Origin: a virus
Virus genome (UHGV): UHGV-0159119
Direction: 5' to 3' (one strand)
DNA: 18,360 bases
Every line of letters starts with the position of its first letter. Within the stretch, counting starts at the first letter, position 1. The notes under the pieces are model-generated. The model did not search any database. It was not told the origin of the DNA and saw nothing but the letters and a program-made list of their open reading frames with translations. This document shows positions 2,459 to 14,462 of the stretch, one piece after another. The position numbers and the translations under genes are program-made.

Positions 2459-3166
2459 CTATGCCGCCTGTTTTAGTTCGTTAACTCTGATGTTCATTAC
2501 CTGAACGCATTTAGCCTGCGCCTCCTCGTTGCCAGCCATTAATTGCCAGTCACGCTGATAACGCTCGATGAGTTTTTTCTTGTCAGTTTCTGTTGACGCA
2601 TAATCGCTGAAGTCTTTCAGGATTTGTTCGCAGTCAACCGATGGAGATTTCTGGTTGGTATTTTCTGGTGATGGTTTGTTATCTGATGCTGGGATTGCCC
2701 ATCCCGGCAGCGATGGAGGGGACCAGTAAAATCCTGTTCCATCCTTCAGTTTTGCCCTGTGCCACCCCTGCTTTTTATCGAGAGATGTTTGTGCGAAACC
2801 TTCCTCAAGGTTATACAGATACCGACCGATTCCCCACTGAACGGCAGCACGCTTCATTGCACCGGAACGACCACCTTTGACGGCTTCTACCTGCGTGTTT
2901 TCAGCAGCATCCCATTTGGTTACCCATTCGGAATCAATCTTGATTGATATGCCGCATTCAACTCCGCCGTTGTTGGGAATATCGCGGTATTCATTGCGCC
3001 ATCCTGCTTTGCCGCAAACATCGTCCAGGCGTTTCATGATTGCCCGGTTCGTGACATAAGCCAGCACCATAGCCCACACCTTGCCATCGCGTGTTTTACC
3101 GCTTTGCTGTATTCGCCATTCGATATCTTCAGGGCTGAATGGCTCATCGAATTTGTTCAAATCCAT
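2459..3166 (-). CDS. Phage single-strand annealing recombinase (Rad52/Sak-type core; C-terminal tail resembles P22 Erf)
   Basis: 235 aa with GISIKIDSEW..KGGRSGAMKRAAVQWGIGRYLYN core. C-terminal TETDKKKLIERYQRDWQ..KCVQVMNIRVNELKQ matches my recollection of the Erf tail. GAGGTG RBS. Confidence 0.8.
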   Translation of the reverse strand: MDLNKFDEPFSPEDIEWRIQQSGKTRDGKVWAMVLAYVTNRAIMKRLDDVCGKAGWRNEYRDIPNNGGVECGISIKIDSEWVTKWDAAENTQVEAVKGGRSGAMKRAAVQWGIGRYLYNLEEGFAQTSLDKKQGWHRAKLKDGTGFYWSPPSLPGWAIPASDNKPSPENTNQKSPSVDCEQILKDFSDYASTETDKKKLIERYQRDWQLMAGNEEAQAKCVQVMNIRVNELKQAA

Positions 3167-3174
3167 AATTCACC

Positions 3175-3345
3175 TCAGAATGGACACGGCCCAAGGAAAT
3201 AACGCTGATTTAATACTTCGACTCGGGACAAATTAAGGCATACCCGCATTCCTTCGCGGTCACCATTATGGCGATACCAGAGAGCTTTCTGCGTGTACAT
3301 GCGTCTCTGTAACTTGCTCTCCTTCACTGTGGTTGCAAGTGACAT
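3175..3345 (-). CDS. Small hypothetical protein (56 aa) in the gam/abc slot
   Basis: Below the track threshold. ATG at 3345 with AAGGAG 7 nt upstream. Overlaps the next ORF by 80 nt in another frame. Confidence 0.3.
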   Translation of the reverse strand: MSLATTVKESKLQRRMYTQKALWYRHNGDREGMRVCLNLSRVEVLNQRYFLGPCPF

Positions 3346-3424
3346 GAATATCTCCTTCGTTACCGATTAATTCTTTCATCTGACGAATGAATTCTTCGTC
3401 TGACCAGTTATCTGTAAAACTCAT
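3266..3424 (-). CDS. Small hypothetical protein (52 aa) in the gam/abc slot
   Basis: ATG at 3424 overlaps the kil stop as ATGA (translational coupling). Translation MSFTDNWSDEEFIRQMKELIG... Confidence 0.3.
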   Translation of the reverse strand: MSFTDNWSDEEFIRQMKELIGNEGDIHVTCNHSEGEQVTETHVHAESSLVSP

Positions 3425-3573
3425 TTCCTGCGATACCACGGAAGGTTGATAGCTGATTTCATCGCTTTATTTGCTTCAAGCCACATTTTTGAATCACCAA
3501 TAAATCTGGCTATTACTGCTTTGTTCTGTGCAGCACGAAGCATCTGGTGATTGATGGCTATTTCATTGCGCAT
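3421..3573 (-). CDS. kil: Kil-like host cell-division inhibitor
   Basis: 50 aa, MRNEIAINHQMLRAAQNKAVIARFIGDSKMW..., resembling lambda Kil (IATFIGDEKMF) as I recall it. Lies directly downstream of cIII as in lambda. GAGG RBS. Confidence 0.55.
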   Translation of the reverse strand: MRNEIAINHQMLRAAQNKAVIARFIGDSKMWLEANKAMKSAINLPWYRRK

Positions 3574-3713: not shown

Positions 3714-4682
3714 TTAGTAGGTTATTTTTGTTGCGAATACTTCGCCTTTTACGATGGCTGTTATGATATTTTTAGCAACATCTTCTGATGCGCCAACCTT
3801 GATAAGGTCAGCAAGTATTTTGTTATTTACTTCTTTCCGGTGATCTTTATCCTTTGCTCTACGCTCTTCTTCGTCCTTGATTCTTTTTTCTTCTGCTATT
3901 CTGGCTTGCTCTTTTGCTTCAGCATCGCGACGGATTTGTTCAGCCTCCTCCTGTGCTTTTCTGCGTTCTGCTTCAATTGCTGCCTGCTTTTCTCTTTCAG
4001 CTCGTTCTGCTGCCTCTTTTGCTTCGCGCTGTGCTCGTTGCTCGGCTTCAATGCGTTCACGCTCTGCACGTTCTGCTGCGGCCTTAGCTTCTGCTTCTCG
4101 CCTTGCTGCTGCTTCAATTTCGGCTTTTGCCTTTGCTTCGGCTTCTGCTCTGGCTTTCTCTTCAGCTTCTCTTTTTAATCGTTCTTCATGCTCTCGCTTT
4201 TCCTGCTCCGCTTTGAGTCTTGCCTCTTCTCTTTGGCGGTCAAATTCGCGATCCATCAAAATCGCTATTTCATGGTCAGACTCAATTTGCTTTGCGAGAG
4301 CTTCAGCTGCTGCCTTAGCTTCTTCTTCGGCTTTAATCCGCGCCTGTTCTTCCTCATAATCAGTAAGAGGCTGGCGTGCCTTGGCTTTCAGCTCATCAAG
4401 GCGATCACGCACTGTCTTGCGGTTGGCATCAATTAGCTTTGGAATTTCCTTCAGTTCAGCAACAAGGTCTTTGCCAAGACCATCGAGATATGTTTTCGTC
4501 TGCGCAACTTTATACGCCAGAGAAGCGATCTCCTTTCTGCCCTTTGCCGTTGTGATATCAGGCACAAAGGACATAACTTCACGTTCAACCTTTTGAAGGA
4601 TTTCTTCAATCTGGTCGGAAGACTGAAATACAGTCATTGCATTTGCTTTTTCAATAACAACTAAATCTGTTACTTCACTCAT
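3714..4682 (-). CDS. Highly charged coiled-coil protein, function unknown
   Basis: 322 aa. The central ~200 residues are E/A/K/R repeats (EAKAKAEIEAAARREAEAKAAAERAERER...). AGGAGG RBS. Confidence 0.7.
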   Translation of the reverse strand: MSEVTDLVVIEKANAMTVFQSSDQIEEILQKVEREVMSFVPDITTAKGRKEIASLAYKVAQTKTYLDGLGKDLVAELKEIPKLIDANRKTVRDRLDELKAKARQPLTDYEEEQARIKAEEEAKAAAEALAKQIESDHEIAILMDREFDRQREEARLKAEQEKREHEERLKREAEEKARAEAEAKAKAEIEAAARREAEAKAAAERAERERIEAEQRAQREAKEAAERAEREKQAAIEAERRKAQEEAEQIRRDAEAKEQARIAEEKRIKDEEERRAKDKDHRKEVNNKILADLIKVGASEDVAKNIITAIVKGEVFATKITY

Positions 4683-5970: not shown

Positions 5971-6028
5971 ATATCACCTCAAATAAGTGGTTTGCTGCCT
6001 AATTTCATTTTCTGGCGACCAACACAAG

Positions 6029-6301
6029 TCATCTTGCTGTCAGTTGTTTGGATTTCCGGTAGCCTGCCGCGTAAAGAGCTACGTTTGGAAGACAAGTTGA
6101 ACCTTCATATTTTCTGGTCAACGTTGTCAGAGTTATCACTTCTGCTCTCATTGCTGGTTTGCGCTTGCATTGCAAGACCACTCGTGAAGGGGTTGGCCTG
6201 TGTAGCTTGTCGGAGCTGATCGCCTCCTGACTTTGCAGATTTGCACGACGAGCTCTACGGCGAGAAGCTGCGGTTCCTTTAAATTCTGTTTTTCTGGACA
6301 T
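6029..6301 (-). CDS. N: N-type transcription antiterminator (P22 gene 24-like)
   Basis: Start at ATG 6301 with GGAGG RBS. Arginine-rich motif GTAASRRRARRA near the N-terminus. C-terminus LPNVALYAAGYRKSKQLTAR matches my recollection of P22 N. The longer track ORF 6029..6373 is an upstream in-frame extension. Confidence 0.8.
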   Translation of the reverse strand: MSRKTEFKGTAASRRRARRANLQSQEAISSDKLHRPTPSRVVLQCKRKPAMRAEVITLTTLTRKYEGSTCLPNVALYAAGYRKSKQLTAR

Positions 6302-6399
6302 AGATTCCTCCCGAATAAACTTTGGCGATGCAATCTCGAAGCCCCTCCTGAGACGGTTGCTTCGGCATTGCATCCCACAGCTTATGTGGTTGGGTGATC

Positions 6400-6445
6400 T
6401 GGCTTTTCAGCCACGTAGTCGAGTGTTCGACGTTGTTTAAAGAGC
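6400..6445 (-). promoter_or_regulatory. nutL (boxA plus boxB)
   Basis: Minus-strand boxA GCTCTTTAAACAA, then a boxB hairpin UGGCU-GAAA-AGCCA (5-bp stem, GAAA loop), located between pL and N. Confidence 0.55.
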
Positions 6446-6491
6446 CTGCCAGTCTGTTCCGTTTGGCTTCCAGCTTCCTGCTGATGGCTAA

Positions 6492-6520
6492 ATAGTACGA
6501 TGTGTACTTTACTGAGTCAA
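6492..6520 (-). promoter_or_regulatory. pL promoter with operator OL1 in the spacer
   Basis: Minus strand TTGACT, 17 nt spacer, TACTAT. The 15-bp operator AGTACACATCGTACT (an AGTAC/GTACT dyad) covers the spacer and the start of the -10, in the same register as at pR. Confidence 0.6.
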
Positions 6521-6582
6521 TACAAAATGTTCTAAATATGGTTTAGTTTTTTATAACGCTTTGTATTTAATGGGTTTATATT

Positions 6583-6616
6583 TTGGAAAAAGAAAACCCG
6601 ACGCTAAGGTCGGGTT
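6583..6616 (-). terminator. Intrinsic terminator downstream of cI
   Basis: Minus-strand hairpin AACCCGAC-CUUAGC-GUCGGGUU followed by UUCUUUUUCC. Confidence 0.55.
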
Positions 6617-6646
6617 ATTGTTGTGTGTTTTAGAGTGGTGAGGCTG

Positions 6647-7306
6647 TTAACTAAATGTCTCTTCAGGCCACTGGCTAGCGATAACTTTCCCTACTACGGA
6701 ACAGCTATCATTGCATGGAATCATTGGATATTGCGGGTTTAGTGGTTGTAGGAACACCTGACCGCTATCCCTGATCAGTTTCTTGAAGGTAAACTCGTCA
6801 CCACCAAGTCTGGCTATGCAGAAATCACCTGGCTCAACAGCCTGCTCAGGGTCAACGAGAATTAACATCCCGTCAGGAAAGCTTGGCTTGGATCCTGTTG
6901 GCGCGGTCATGGAATTACCTTCAACTTCAAGCCAAAACGCACAATCACTGGCTTTTTTGGTTGTGCTGACCCATCTCTCCGCATCACCTTTGGTAAAGGT
7001 TCTAAGCTCAGGCGAGAACATCCCGGCCTGAACATGAGAAAAAACAGGGTACTCATATTGTTTTTTAACGGGGGCAGATGAGTATTCGCCAACAGGTGAA
7101 AATGTACCGTCGTGGTTGAATGAGACGTTATCAATACCAAGGTATTTAAACACCACACCAATCTCGTCAAGAGATGGATGACGAGATCCGCGCAACCAGT
7201 GACCAATTCCACCCTGCGTCATACCAAGCTCTTCGGCTAACTTCTCTTGAGTTATGCCGAGCTCTTTCATTCTGGATCTAGCCAGTTCATACCATTTCAT
7301 TTTCAT
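6647..7306 (-). CDS. cI: CI prophage repressor (HTH N-domain, LexA-like autocleaving C-domain)
   Basis: C-terminal domain is almost identical to lambda CI, including the AG cleavage site in HVQAGMF. The N-terminal HTH domain is not lambda's. Alternative starts at ATG 7300, 7342 and 7348. Confidence 0.9.
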
Positions 7307-7315
7307 ACCCTTATT

Positions 7316-7330
7316 ATTACGCTCTGTACT
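7316..7330. promoter_or_regulatory. Operator-like site (OR3-like) overlapping the presumed pRM
   Basis: ATTACGCTCTGTACT matches the operator consensus at 13 of 15 positions, just upstream of the cI start. Confidence 0.35.
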
Positions 7331-7362
7331 AAAATCATCCATGCACAAGATGTATTTTTTGT

Positions 7363-7391
7363 TTGCATTCTAAAAGTACATATCGTATTAT
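7363..7391 (+). promoter_or_regulatory. pR promoter with operator OR1 in the spacer
   Basis: TTGCAT, 17 nt spacer, TATTAT. Operator AGTACATATCGTATT at 7375..7389 differs from OL1 at two positions. Confidence 0.6.
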
Positions 7392-7417
7392 TGCGTTATG
7401 GTTACTATGGAGGGCAT

Positions 7418-7633
7418 ATGAGCAACCTACGAAAATATCGAGAGTCACTGAATATCTCTCAAACAACACTTGCTAAGGCAGTTGGATGCACACAGGGAGC
7501 TATCGGACATTGGGAATCTGGTCGTCGCTTCCCAGACCTTAAAACATGCCGTGCTCTTGTTGCGTGCCTAAACAAGTTAGGCGCAAAAGTCAGTCTTGAT
7601 GACGTGTTCCCGCCGGAACACAAAGCCGCTTAA
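7418..7633 (+). CDS. cro: Cro-like repressor (XRE-family HTH)
   Basis: 71 aa, MSNLRKYRESLNISQTTLAKAVGCTQGAIGHWESGRR... The HTH resembles the cI recognition helix (TQGGIGHW). GGAGGG RBS. Track ORF 7247..7633 is an in-frame upstream extension. Confidence 0.85.
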   Translation: MSNLRKYRESLNISQTTLAKAVGCTQGAIGHWESGRRFPDLKTCRALVACLNKLGAKVSLDDVFPPEHKAA

Positions 7634-7643
7634 TAAGCGGATC

Positions 7644-7689
7644 CGCTCTTTGTAACAACGGACATTCGTCCTACGTCGCTGAAAAGCGA
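7644..7689 (+). promoter_or_regulatory. nutR (boxA plus boxB)
   Basis: boxA CGCTCTTTGTAACAA, then a boxB hairpin UCGCU-GAAA-AGCGA of the same architecture as nutL. The GCGGATCCGC palindrome sits immediately upstream. Confidence 0.55.
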
Positions 7690-7774
7690 GTTCCAAGATA
7701 TCTGACCAACTAAGGCCATATGCGTTTCCACGCATACCTTTCAACTAACTATTCACTACTGGAAATCTTAAGAA

Positions 7775-8074
7775 ATGGAACAAACAAGTTACAGCAAACT
7801 ATCACAGCGCGACGTTGATCGCGCAGAAACAGATTTACTCATCAACCTGTCAACGCTTACCCAGCGCGGTCTGGCAAAGATGATTGGCTGTCATGAATCG
7901 AAGATAAGCAGAACGGACTGGAGATTTATTGCTTCGGTCTTGTGTGCTTTCGGAATGGCATCAGACATCAGTCCGATTAGCAGGGCTTTTAAGTATGCGC
8001 TTGATGAAATCACCAATAAAAAACGCCCGGTGTGCAAGACCGAGCGTTCTGAACAAATCCAGATGGATTTTTAA
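7775..8074 (+). CDS. cII: CII transcriptional activator
   Basis: 99 aa. C-terminus ITNKKRPVCKTERSEQIQMDF closely matches lambda CII (ILTNKKRPAATERSEQIQMEF). Confidence 0.85.
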   Translation: MEQTSYSKLSQRDVDRAETDLLINLSTLTQRGLAKMIGCHESKISRTDWRFIASVLCAFGMASDISPISRAFKYALDEITNKKRPVCKTERSEQIQMDF

Positions 8075-8092
8075 CAACATCCAACGAGGTAA
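8015..8092 (-). ncRNA. oop-like antisense RNA overlapping the 3' end of cII
   Basis: Minus strand ...CCAUCUGGAUUUGUUCAGAACGCUCGG-UCUUGCACA-CCGGGCG-UUUUUUAUU, strongly resembling the lambda oop 3' end and terminator. A TATAAT lies on the minus strand near 8093..8100. The 5' end is approximate. Confidence 0.45.
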
Positions 8093-8096
8093 TTAT

Positions 8097-8369
8097 ATGC
8101 GAAACAAAGGCTTTAATCCACCTGATACACACAAAGAAGCTAAGCGTTTGCGCTTCCTTCGTTCCATTGATGAAAGAACTCAAATCTCTTTTGTGAAAGT
8201 TGCCAGAACTGAGCTTCTGAAGGCTGAGGCGAGGGCGTTGCTCCAGTCTCTACCAAAAGAGGAGGGATATACGTTCATTCCAAACGCATTTCTGGAAAAG
8301 CTTCTCAAAGAAGACATATCCGTAAGTCAGTTTAACGATGTTCTTAAGGTCTTTCGTCAAGGCAGGTAG
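8097..8369 (+). CDS. Hypothetical protein between cII and the replication initiator
   Basis: 90 aa from ATG 8097 with GAGGT RBS. Track ORF 7929..8369 is an in-frame extension that overlaps cII. Confidence 0.55.
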   Translation: MRNKGFNPPDTHKEAKRLRFLRSIDERTQISFVKVARTELLKAEARALLQSLPKEEGYTFIPNAFLEKLLKEDISVSQFNDVLKVFRQGR

Positions 8370-13842: not shown

Positions 13843-14462
13843 GACTCGAAAGCGTAGCTAAATTTCATTCGCCAAAAAGCCCAATGATGAGCGACTCACC
13901 ACGGGCTACGGCTTCTGACTCTCTTTCCGGTACTGATGTGATGGCTGCTATGGGGATGGCGCAATCACAAGCCGGATTCGGTATGGCTGCATTCTGCGGT
14001 AAGCACGAACTCAGCCAGAACGACAAACAAAAGGCTATCAACTATCTGATGCAATTTGCACACAAGGTATCGGGGAAATACCGTGGTGTGGCAAAGCTTG
14101 AAGGAAATACTAAGGCAAAGGTACTGCAAGTGCTCGCAACATTCGCTTATGCGGATTATTGCCGTAGTGCCGCGACGCCGGGCGCAAGATGCAGAGATTG
14201 CCACGGTACAGGTCGTGCGGTTGATATAGCAAAAACAGAGCAGTGGGGGAGAGTTGTTGAGAAAGAGTGCGGAAGATGCAAAGGCGTCGGCTATTCCAGG
14301 ATGCCAGCAAGCGCCGCATATCGCGCTGTAACGATGCTAATCCCAAACCTTACCCAACCCACCTGGTCACGCACTGTTAAGCCGCTGTATGACGCTCTGG
14401 TGGTGCAATGCCACAAGGAAGAGTCAATCGCAGACAACATTTTGAATGCGGTCACACGTTAG
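13839..14462 (+). CDS. Q: Q late-gene antiterminator
   Basis: 207 aa, essentially lambda Q (MRLESVAKFHSPKSPMMSDSPRATASD...), including the CxxC zinc-binding segment. Confidence 0.9.
   Translation: MRLESVAKFHSPKSPMMSDSPRATASDSLSGTDVMAAMGMAQSQAGFGMAAFCGKHELSQNDKQKAINYLMQFAHKVSGKYRGVAKLEGNTKAKVLQVLATFAYADYCRSAATPGARCRDCHGTGRAVDIAKTEQWGRVVEKECGRCKGVGYSRMPASAAYRAVTMLIPNLTQPTWSRTVKPLYDALVVQCHKEESIADNILNAVTR

Follow-up and report, generated by a model that had tools for sequence, protein, structure and literature searches.

A VT2-Sakai-group immunity region with three predicted operators at each control region in a mosaic lambdoid genome

Closest described systems and the immunity group

The early control regions most like the one analysed here are those of VT2-Sakai (Sp5), the Stx1-converting phage, Stx2 phage II (AP005153, AP005154), Nil2, 2851, 1717, YYZ-2008 and the PA-series, which share the order N-nutL-pL/OL-cI-OR/pR-cro-nutR-cII. 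The annotation of AP005154 lists three plus three putative 17-bp operators and a putative maintenance promoter, and the same six sites have been tabulated for Sakai-type phages in papers. The sole EMSAs on Sakai-type sites used lambda cI at micromolar concentrations, and a search of the searchable literature returned neither footprints nor gel shifts made with the cognate proteins, repressor or Cro; within that literature, the cognate repressor-operator interactions appear to rest on prediction. Fattah et al. 2000 is reportedly the primary source for the Sakai operators.

The window, an 18,360-nucleotide stretch of DNA from virus genome UHGV-0159119, contains at 6029-8074 the early control (immunity) region of a lambdoid prophage or phage of E. 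coli with a mosaic genome (Table 1), and its gene order is that of the Stx phages above. cI and cro diverge around a multipartite OR, the repressor joins an N-terminal HTH to a C-terminal LexA/S24 autocleavage domain, and OL lies over pL (6492-6568), upstream of N, with nutL and nutR in place. Such a layout, a lambdoid immunity region with N/nut and putative operators overlapping pL and pR, had been proposed in the initial annotation and is borne out by the sequence. N is 100% identical to that of Stx2 phage II, 2851 and the PA phages, cI and cro DNA are about 93% identical to those of the Stx phage group, and the DNA-binding domain and Cro are common to the window and the VT2-Sakai/Stx2 phage II group. 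The six predicted 17-bp operators align one to one with the VT2-Sakai set at homologous positions, each with 1-2 substitutions that are mostly central or terminal. Sequence comparison places the window in this group, which also includes many non-Stx coliphages. The immunity type had initially been presented as unrecognised, with a comparison against the operators of sequenced lambdoid phages as the check; that comparison matched all six sites to the VT2-Sakai set, hence the type is not new. It is already known, with putative operators in GenBank and in papers and identical DNA in sequenced E. coli genomes.

The block OL-cI-OR was found in 776 of 5,426 complete E. coli genomes (~14%), four of them at 100% identity. 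The phages vB_EcoP-683R2, Dewey and Louie and the prophages of E. coli 14EC047, 14EC017 and XH992 are 98-100% identical over OL-cI-OR-cro and, like the window, have a compact cI-OL gap without cargo; their left arm is unlike the window's, homology in the phage records stopping near 6473 and the N region of 14EC047 being annotated as a frameshifted hypothetical gene. The Stx phages differ in that additional ORFs, about 1.4 kb in all and absent from the window, separate OL3 from cI, and, because these genomes are mosaic, in their rightward replication and nin modules. Identification of the window with one known phage was ruled out, as no single record covers more than 47% of it.

Other immunity types were considered and set aside. 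The footprinted operators of BAA2326 are unrelated in sequence to the window's sites, and 933W, whose CI is only 19.1% identical to that of Sp5, likewise represents a different type. Membership of imm-lambda was rejected: of the repressor only the C-domain is lambda's, its N-domain has no more than remote similarity (1lli, E=0.0033), and the operators bear no relation to lambda's. An Avibacterium locus (L088) was rejected as a footprinting partner, its recognition helix and palindromes being different.

Table 1. Features of the early control region, in window coordinates; operators and PRM are predictions
Feature	Position	Strand	Sequence or composition	Basis
N antiterminator gene	6029..6301	-	90 aa (MSRKTEFKGTAASRRRARR...)	Pfam N_peptide E=3.4e-32
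nutL	6400..6446	-	boxA GGCTCTTTAAACAA 6433-6446	sequence; putative function
nutL hairpins		-	spacer GTCGA-ACAC-TCGAC 6418-6431; boxB TGGCT-GAAA-AGCCA 6400-6413	
pL	6492..6520	-	-35 TTGACT (6520-6515), 17-nt spacer, -10 TACTAT (6497-6492)	consensus scan, 9/12 matches
OL1	6493..6509		TAGTACGATGTGTACTT; holds 15-mer 6494-6508	top matrix score 18.8; annotated (AP005154) and published VT2-Sakai equivalent
OL2	6518..6534		CAATACAAAATGTTCTA; overlaps pL -35	matrix rank 4; annotated and published equivalent
OL3	6552..6568		TATAACGCTTTGTATTT	matrix rank 5, score 11.6; annotated and published equivalent
Intrinsic terminator after cI	6595..6616	-	AACCCGAC-CTTAGC-GTCGGGTT, then T-rich tail	terminator scan
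cI repressor	6647..7306	-	219 aa; HTH_3 N-domain and lambda-type S24 autocleaving C-domain	Pfam
PRM (putative)	7313..7341	-	-35 TGGATG (7341-7336), -10 AATAAT (7318-7313)	sequence geometry
OR3	7315..7331		TATTACGCTCTGTACTA	matrix rank 3; kept in L086 and L087; annotated and published equivalent
OR2	7341..7357		ATGCACAAGATGTATTT	matrix rank 6, score 11.2; position kept in L086 and L087; annotated and published equivalent
pR	7363..7391	+	-35 TTGCAT (7363-7368), 17-nt spacer, -10 TATTAT (7386-7391)	register read from sequence
OR1	7374..7390		AAGTACATATCGTATTA; holds 15-mer 7375-7389	score 17.6; annotated and published equivalent
cro	7418..7633	+	71 aa; HTH_3 (434/P22-Cro-like all-helical type)	Pfam HTH_3 E=4.2e-12
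nutR	7644..7689	+	boxA CGCTCTTTGTAACAA 7644-7658	sequence
nutR hairpins		+	spacer GGAC-ATTC-GTCC 7660-7671; boxB TCGCT-GAAA-AGCGA 7676-7689	
cII	7775..8074	+	99 aa	Pfam Phage_CII E=6e-34

Repressor, Cro and the predicted operators

The repressor had been described as a hybrid, with a lambda-type autocleaving C-domain and a different DNA-binding domain, and this description holds: Pfam assigns HTH_3 (E=8e-11) and Peptidase_S24 (E=9e-29), and residues 84-218 are nearly identical to the lambda cI structures 3bdn and 8gmu, with the AG hinge aligned. Against the lambda sequence, cross-checked on the structure alignment, the C-domain shows three differences in 136 residues (C122, D200 and S219), whereas the N-terminal domain is unrelated in detail to lambda's (E=0.003), the lambda Cro fold differs from the window's HTH_3 Cro, and lambda operators are of the TATCACCGC type as against AGTACA..TGTACT in the window. 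Over 79 loci the HTH segment does not vary and the N-domain differs by at most 3 residues, and 80 IMG/VR loci carry a 100% identical Cro. Cro and the repressor N-domain are 35% identical and, in keeping with the initial claim of similar recognition helices, have the helix TQG(G/A)IGHW in common. The best PDB sequence match of Cro is 28tn_A (E=4.5e-17), and weak PDB matches to P22 c2 and 434 repressor were obtained. In 434 and P22, too, the repressor N-domain and Cro form a paralogous HTH_3 pair whose near-identical recognition helices read the same operators, although sequence identity to the window's pair is low and the operator sequences and C-domain are other ones.

The operator-like 15-mers noted initially at the two promoters, AGTACACATCGTACT at 6494-6508(-) and AGTACATATCGTATT at 7375-7389(+), are both exact and lie in the same register, each covering the spacer's final 11 nt and running 4 nt into the -10. 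With up to three mismatches allowed, the 15-mer has four matches in the window versus 0.81 expected, the other two (6519-6533 and 7316-7330) both being further predicted operators. A half-site matrix trained on OL1 and OR1 only was used to score about 18,300 window positions; ranks 3-6 went to OR3, OL2, OL3 and OR2 at scores of 13.7-11.2, with the next best at 9.3, and the probability that chance alone would put all four extra sites no more than 80 bp from the training sites is about 1e-7. The scores of OR2 and OL3 are about 2 bits, no more, over the best background 17-mers. These observations were complemented by an unbiased repeat search, which recovered OL1/OR1 (inverted-repeat pair I2), OL2/OL3 and OL3/OR3.

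Conservation was examined in close and distant relatives. Among 34-37 distinct variants, 26 of 87 operator columns are variable versus 49 of 86 spacer columns (Fisher p=4e-4), a test of limited power since the close relatives are shallow, and one in which the conservation of OL1 is partly forced by the anchor used. In an Erwinia locus (L087, 7.2 kb), where Cro is 76% identical with the same recognition helix, the C-domain is different and the spacers have diverged, the six best matrix matches divide equally between OL and OR, and the OR sites have the window's spacing of 26 and 33 bp; the L086 locus has three OR and two OL sites. On the sequence, then, the predicted sites form the classical three-plus-three layout (OL1-3, OR1-3), spaced by 25 and 34 bp at OL and by 26 and 33 bp at OR. 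The single operator per promoter of the initial annotation, presented as a clean model, was an undercount because each control region has three predicted operators, OL1 and OR1 being merely the strongest two of six.

At pR the promoter scan called TTTGCA-18-TATTAT with 9/12 matches, a register other than TTGCAT-17. PRM, with a weak -35 (3/6), was not called by the scan, and the maintenance promoter annotated in AP005154 lies at the same place; a start at ~7306, the A of the cI ATG, would give a leaderless transcript. The distance of 6 nt from its -10 to the ATG is the same in L086 and L087 despite sequence differences. The window and lambda are alike in three plus three operators, divergent pR/PRM, a likely leaderless cI and an OR2 some 42-43 bp upstream of the PRM start; unlike lambda, the window has the pR -35 in the OR1-OR2 gap, where OR2 does not overlap it, has no rexAB, and departs in its operator spacings from lambda's 23-24 bp.

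Taken as a whole, the region is with high probability a VT2-Sakai-group immunity region working as a lambda-type bistable switch with three OL and three OR sites. It may be, though we hold this to be a tentative and rather improbable suggestion, that the group's switch, for all that it employs lambda's own C-domain, differs in logic from lambda's. The 26/33-bp OR spacing is kept in the Erwinia relative with its different C-domain, and given the asymmetric spacing and the position of the pR -35, cooperative pairing could be OR2-OR3 and OL1-OL2, or could span three helical turns.

It is unlikely that the switch is a reduced one, in which at most five sites function (OL3 or OR2, for example, being too weak to be filled in vivo) or binding is non-cooperative as in 933W, which is reported with two OL sites (no OL3) and no cooperativity. 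OL3 and OR2 do score lowest, no third OL site is among the ten best matches of the L086 locus, and the 33- and 34-bp spacings do not resemble lambda's; against this, OL3 is the least variable of the unanchored sites (3 of 17 columns, versus 13 of 17 in the adjoining spacer) and is present in the Erwinia locus, and the repressor has lambda's own C-domain, to which the literature attributes cooperative binding. Still less credit can be given to one operator per early promoter, OL1 at pL and OR1 at pR, with the other GTAC-like sequences unbound. OL1 and OR1 do stand far above the other matches (18.8 and 17.6 bits versus at most 13.7) and no other site covers a -10, but the next four matches in the 18 kb all adjoin them, reappear in L086 and L087 with position and spacing unchanged although the spacers have diverged, and are less variable than the spacers; OR2 and OR3, moreover, lie where lambda-type PRM control requires them, and earlier annotators arrived at the same six sites. 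That the palindromes are chance or compositional features of AT-rich intergenic DNA can be dismissed almost entirely, for while the sites are short and 1 of 200 shuffles also reached four matches, two exact 15-mers occupy an identical register on two promoters, the clustering statistics and the conservation in distant relatives speak against it, and the recognition helices of repressor and Cro match.

Antitermination module and the cI-OL gap

The initial description of N as P22-like is correct for its last 24 residues (67-90, 79% to gp24) and fails for the rest, the nearest characterised full-length homologue being H-19B N at 41%. A P22-type N/boxB pair was rejected, given this restricted similarity and boxB loops of GAAA where the P22 type has GACAA, and the RNA-binding part of N, judged from its sequence, is not P22-type. 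H-19B N has the same MxRxTxFKG...RRR ARM region and an identical stretch of 22 residues at the C-terminus, and it acts with a nut site that has, as the window's do, a second hairpin in the boxA-boxB spacer; it differs in being 127 aa long, 37 residues more than the window's N, in its GACAA boxB loop as against the 4-nt GAAA, and in unrelated cI and cro.

The two nut sites were recovered by the repeat search as inverted-repeat pair I1, and the 5-bp boxB stems with GAAA loops reported initially are present in both. The stem of the nutL spacer hairpin is kept in relatives while its loop varies, the centroid fold of nutR has two hairpins, and the boxB of nutR differs from that of nutL by a compensatory G:C-to-C:G exchange. 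It is conceivable, although again improbable, that the short 90-aa N recognises a true GNRA (GAAA) tetraloop boxB in place of the 5-nt loops of lambda and P22. Literature searches returned nothing relevant on a GAAA-tetraloop boxB class in Stx phages and no biochemical work on the group's operator pairing or on GAAA-boxB recognition by N, and no RNA family of Rfam, nut included, matched anywhere in the window at the gathering threshold. N and nut are not counted in the immunity type because the same cI/cro pair occurs with a P22/H-19B-type nutL (12 loci) and with another nutR (9).

Between cI and OL3 there is no ORF of at least 40 aa and the gap holds the intrinsic terminator, as had been stated; the claimed lack of rex-like cargo is true, yet the slot is variable, this state of it is common, and the window is not set apart by it. 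For PRE, the cII-type motif TTGC-N6-TTGC had no exact match near cro/cII, its sole window match, at 14126, being at chance level.

Proposed working of the switch and its relevance

Beyond the sequence anatomy, domain identities, site enrichment and conservation, and identity with annotated relatives described above, we infer a scheme of binding, cooperativity, PRM initiation and antitermination. Dimers of the 219-aa repressor would bind, through the HTH_3 N-domain, the 17-bp pseudo-palindromic operators with a half-site of approximately A-A/T-G-T-A-C-A/G, three at OL (6493-6568) and three at OR (7315-7390). OL1 and OR1 overlap the spacer and the -10 of their promoters, pL and pR, which their occupation would repress; the position of OR2, whose centre is 43 bp upstream of the cI ATG, would suit activation of a leaderless PRM transcript, and OR3, overlapping the PRM -10, could provide negative autoregulation. 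From a C-domain that is essentially lambda cI's one would expect dimerisation, pairwise cooperativity and, at the Ala-Gly hinge, RecA-stimulated self-cleavage, and possibly also a loop joining OL to OR over 881 bp. Cooperativity between OR1 and OR2 in the lambda style is an assumption, since these sites are 33 bp apart as against 24 bp in lambda and OR2 lies off the pR -35. Cro, with nearly the same recognition helix, would bind the same sites and favour lytic growth, and N would act at nutL and nutR (boxA, spacer hairpin and GAAA-loop boxB) to allow read-through of terminators.

As a discovery the region carries little weight, the type, the hybrid repressor and six putative operators being already on record. 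The cI-OL gap is a handy natural cargo slot for a survey of accessory and defence genes. The practical relevance is that this switch governs the Stx2 prophage of the Sakai type together with many further E. coli prophages, and as the cognate interactions in the searchable literature are predictions, research on Stx phage induction would gain from footprinting and cooperativity measurements.

Predicted operators at pL and pR

The 15-bp operator proposed in the initial annotation is present exactly at 6494-6508 on the minus strand (AGTACACATCGTACT) and at 7375-7389 on the plus strand (AGTACATATCGTATT). A promoter scan placed pL on the minus strand (TTGACT-17-TACTAT, 6520..6492) and pR on the plus strand (-10 TATTAT, 7386-7391), for which the scan gives TTTGCA with an 18-nt spacer and TTGCAT with 17 nt is equally readable. 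At pL and pR alike, the 15-mer occupies the final 11 nt of the spacer and extends over the first 4 nt of the -10, which bears out the proposal of a common register.

The accompanying proposal of one operator per promoter was an undercount, and the operator model is thus incomplete: three sites are predicted at each of OL and OR (see table). The first sign came from searching the consensus at up to three mismatches, which returned four matches in the 18,360-bp window, where 0.81 were expected (four were reached in 1 of 200 shuffles), with the two further matches, 6519-6533 and 7316-7330, adjoining the exact 15-mers. By training a half-site weight matrix on the two original sites only and scoring all 17-mers in the window as palindromes, we recovered the training sites at ranks 1-2, followed at ranks 3-6 by OR3 (13.7), OL2 (12.1), OL3 (11.6), and OR2 (11.2), while the best match elsewhere in the window scored 9.3; the probability of all four falling within 80 bp of the training sites by chance is about 1e-7. 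An unbiased repeat search likewise recovered OL1/OR1, OL2/OL3, and an OL3/OR3 family.

Genes and predicted repressor sites of the immunity region
Feature	Coordinates	Strand	Sequence	Basis
N	6029-6301	minus		Pfam N_peptide, E=3e-32
OL1	6493-6509		TAGTACGATGTGTACTT	aligned to AP005154 putative operator
OL2	6518-6534		CAATACAAAATGTTCTA	aligned to AP005154 putative operator
OL3	6552-6568		TATAACGCTTTGTATTT	aligned to AP005154 putative operator
cI	6647-7306	minus		Pfam HTH_3 and Peptidase_S24
OR3	7315-7331		TATTACGCTCTGTACTA	aligned to AP005154 putative operator
OR2	7341-7357		ATGCACAAGATGTATTT	aligned to AP005154 putative operator
OR1	7374-7390		AAGTACATATCGTATTA	aligned to AP005154 putative operator
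cro	7418-7633	plus		Pfam HTH_3
cII	7775-8074	plus		Pfam Phage_CII

A Cro search yielded 80 IMG/VR loci with identical Cro and three divergent genomic relatives. [quoted passage not shown] Among 34-37 distinct E. coli-lineage variants, 26 of 87 operator columns were variable compared with 49 of 86 spacer columns (Fisher p=4e-4; OL1, having served as the anchor, was left out).

These sites have been annotated before. AP005154 annotates putative 17-bp operators in two sets of three, one separating N from the cargo ORFs and the other lying between cI and cro, and also marks pR and a maintenance promoter as putative. The same six were tabulated for Sakai-type (PST1) phages by Yin et al. 2015 (PMC4587872, Table S5), who credit Fattah et al. 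2000, and served as oligonucleotides in EMSAs with lambda cI (Table S1, PMC10742460); the window operators differ from the published ones by 1-2 substitutions per site. Table S5 (Additional file 6 of PMC4587872) applies the labels OR1-3 to the sites near N and OL1-3 to those near cro, which is swapped relative to gene order, AP005154, and PMC10742460.

Repressor, Cro, and switch geometry

The suggestion of a hybrid repressor with a recognition helix similar to that of Cro is upheld, because the C-domain is lambda-like, the N-domain is remote, and the helix is common to both proteins. Specifically, the lambda cI structures 3bdn and 8gmu are near-identical to cI residues 84-218 (three differences in 136 residues, counted against a lambda sequence cross-checked on the 3bdn/8gmu alignment), the N-domain matches that of lambda at E=0.003 only, and Cro is 35% identical to the cI N-domain, sharing the helix TQG(G/A)IGHW. 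The L087 repressor (about 2690-3430, minus strand) pairs the same helix, TQGAIGHW, and the same operator layout with a different, non-lambda S24 C-domain, unrelated in detail to lambda's, which suggests that domains were exchanged at the hinge separating DNA binding from cleavage.

OL1 and OR1 lie over the spacer and -10 of pL and pR, and OL2 overlaps the pL -35. Upstream of cI on the minus strand, AATAAT (7318-7313), overlapped by OR3, is the predicted PRM -10; exactly six bases separate it from the cI start codon (ATG, 7306). A weak -35, TGGATG (7341-7336), abuts OR2. The distance from -10 to ATG is kept in L086 and L087, while the six intervening bases differ. The OR2 center lies 43 bp upstream of the inferred leaderless start, matching the geometry of lambda PRM. 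Repressor at the predicted operators would repress pL and pR, OR2 would activate PRM, OR3 would provide autorepression, Cro would compete for the same predicted sites, and the lambda-type C-domain would allow SOS induction. We conclude that the switch probably works like that of lambda, with all binding steps predicted from sequence. It differs from lambda in its asymmetric center-to-center spacing (OL1-OL2 25, OL2-OL3 34, OR3-OR2 26, and OR2-OR1 33 bp), in the position of the pR -35, which lies not under OR2 but in the gap between it and OR1, and in an OL1-OR1 distance of only 881 bp.

The literature searched contained no binding work with the cognate repressor. Footprinted Stx-phage repressors were rejected as a match, being of other immunity types, and the BAA2326 operators are unrelated to the window sites; Sp5 and 933W CI share 19.1% identity.

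Modules flanking the switch

N is 100% identical to that of Stx2 phage II, 2851, and PA phages. The description of N as P22-like holds for residues 67-90, the only part matched by P22 gp24; over the full length, the nearest characterized relative is H-19B N (41%), a protein 37 residues longer whose C-terminal tail is identical and whose N-terminal ARM region is shared. Both nutL and nutR consist of boxA, a short spacer hairpin, and boxB, whose 5-bp stem and 4-nt GAAA loop are as initially described, with a compensatory G:C to C:G exchange between the two. Two hairpins have been reported in H-19B nutR (PMC3526286), where the boxB loop is GACAA instead. In the minimum-energy folds of 6400-6446 and 7644-7689, boxA (GCUCUUU) pairs with the boxB loop and 3' arm (AAAAGC), which may represent an alternative NUT structure competing with the two-hairpin form.

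Among identical-Cro loci, a P22/H-19B-type nutL occurs in 12 and a different nutR in 9; in different phages, an identical cI/cro module is accompanied by at least two types of N/nutL and two of nutR (loci L003-L085). N/nut is therefore a separate mosaic module outside the immunity type, with mosaic junctions immediately outside OL and immediately downstream of cro. After cII, the ORFs and Pfam show O-like and DnaB-like replication genes. An ORF of 322 aa on the minus strand (3714-4682) contains a long, low-complexity central region extremely rich in E/A/K/R.

The cI-pL gap indeed contains only a terminator and no rex-like cargo: the 78 bp from OL3 to the cI stop (6569-6646) hold an intrinsic terminator on the minus strand (6595-6616), and no ORF there reaches 40 aa. 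Across loci, OL1-to-cro distances form discrete classes from ~0.9 kb, the empty state seen in about 22 loci (the window among them), to ~2.5 kb, and occupied gaps carry unrelated genes (described for L001, L005, L013, L015, L022, L041, L043, and L061), namely DUF1828 and DUF6978 proteins, a Bro-N protein, a DUF2335 membrane protein, a HicA toxin accompanied by a small partner, or ORFs of 126-324 aa lacking Pfam matches. The gap is thus a variable slot for accessory genes, with the empty form as one common allele.

Distribution of the immunity type

By megablast, 6000-8100 is ~94% identical to a large coliphage set that includes the Stx1-converting phage and Stx2 phage II of strain Morioka V526 (AP005153, AP005154), 2851, 1717, YYZ-2008, Nil2, PA-series Sakai-type Stx2a phages, and the non-Stx phages 2B8, ev017, and ev207. 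VT2-Sakai is 92% identical over the OR region, and vB_EcoP-683R2, Dewey, and Louie are 98-98.5% identical over the cI-cro block. The VT2-Sakai reference record NC_000902 (locus L090, 2648-3343) splits cI into a 510-nt cI annotation and a second, separate feature named "c1 repressor protein fragment," which suggests a frameshift or sequencing error there.

Four complete E. coli chromosomes carry the OL-cI-OR block (6470-7430) at 100% identity, and 776 of 5,426 complete genomes contain it at ≥80% coverage. In one of the four, 14EC047, the prophage is P22-like and adjoins torI/dsdC, and the annotation gives the gene left of pL (locus L002, 19809-20032) as a hypothetical protein with a frameshift.

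Judged by these coliphage identities and genome counts, the immunity type, initially considered unrecognized, is one of the commonest in E. coli. The one gap identified is that biochemical studies of the cognate repressor seem to be missing for so common a switch. The immunity type and its six putative operators are already public; the underlying observation is real and its general reading right.
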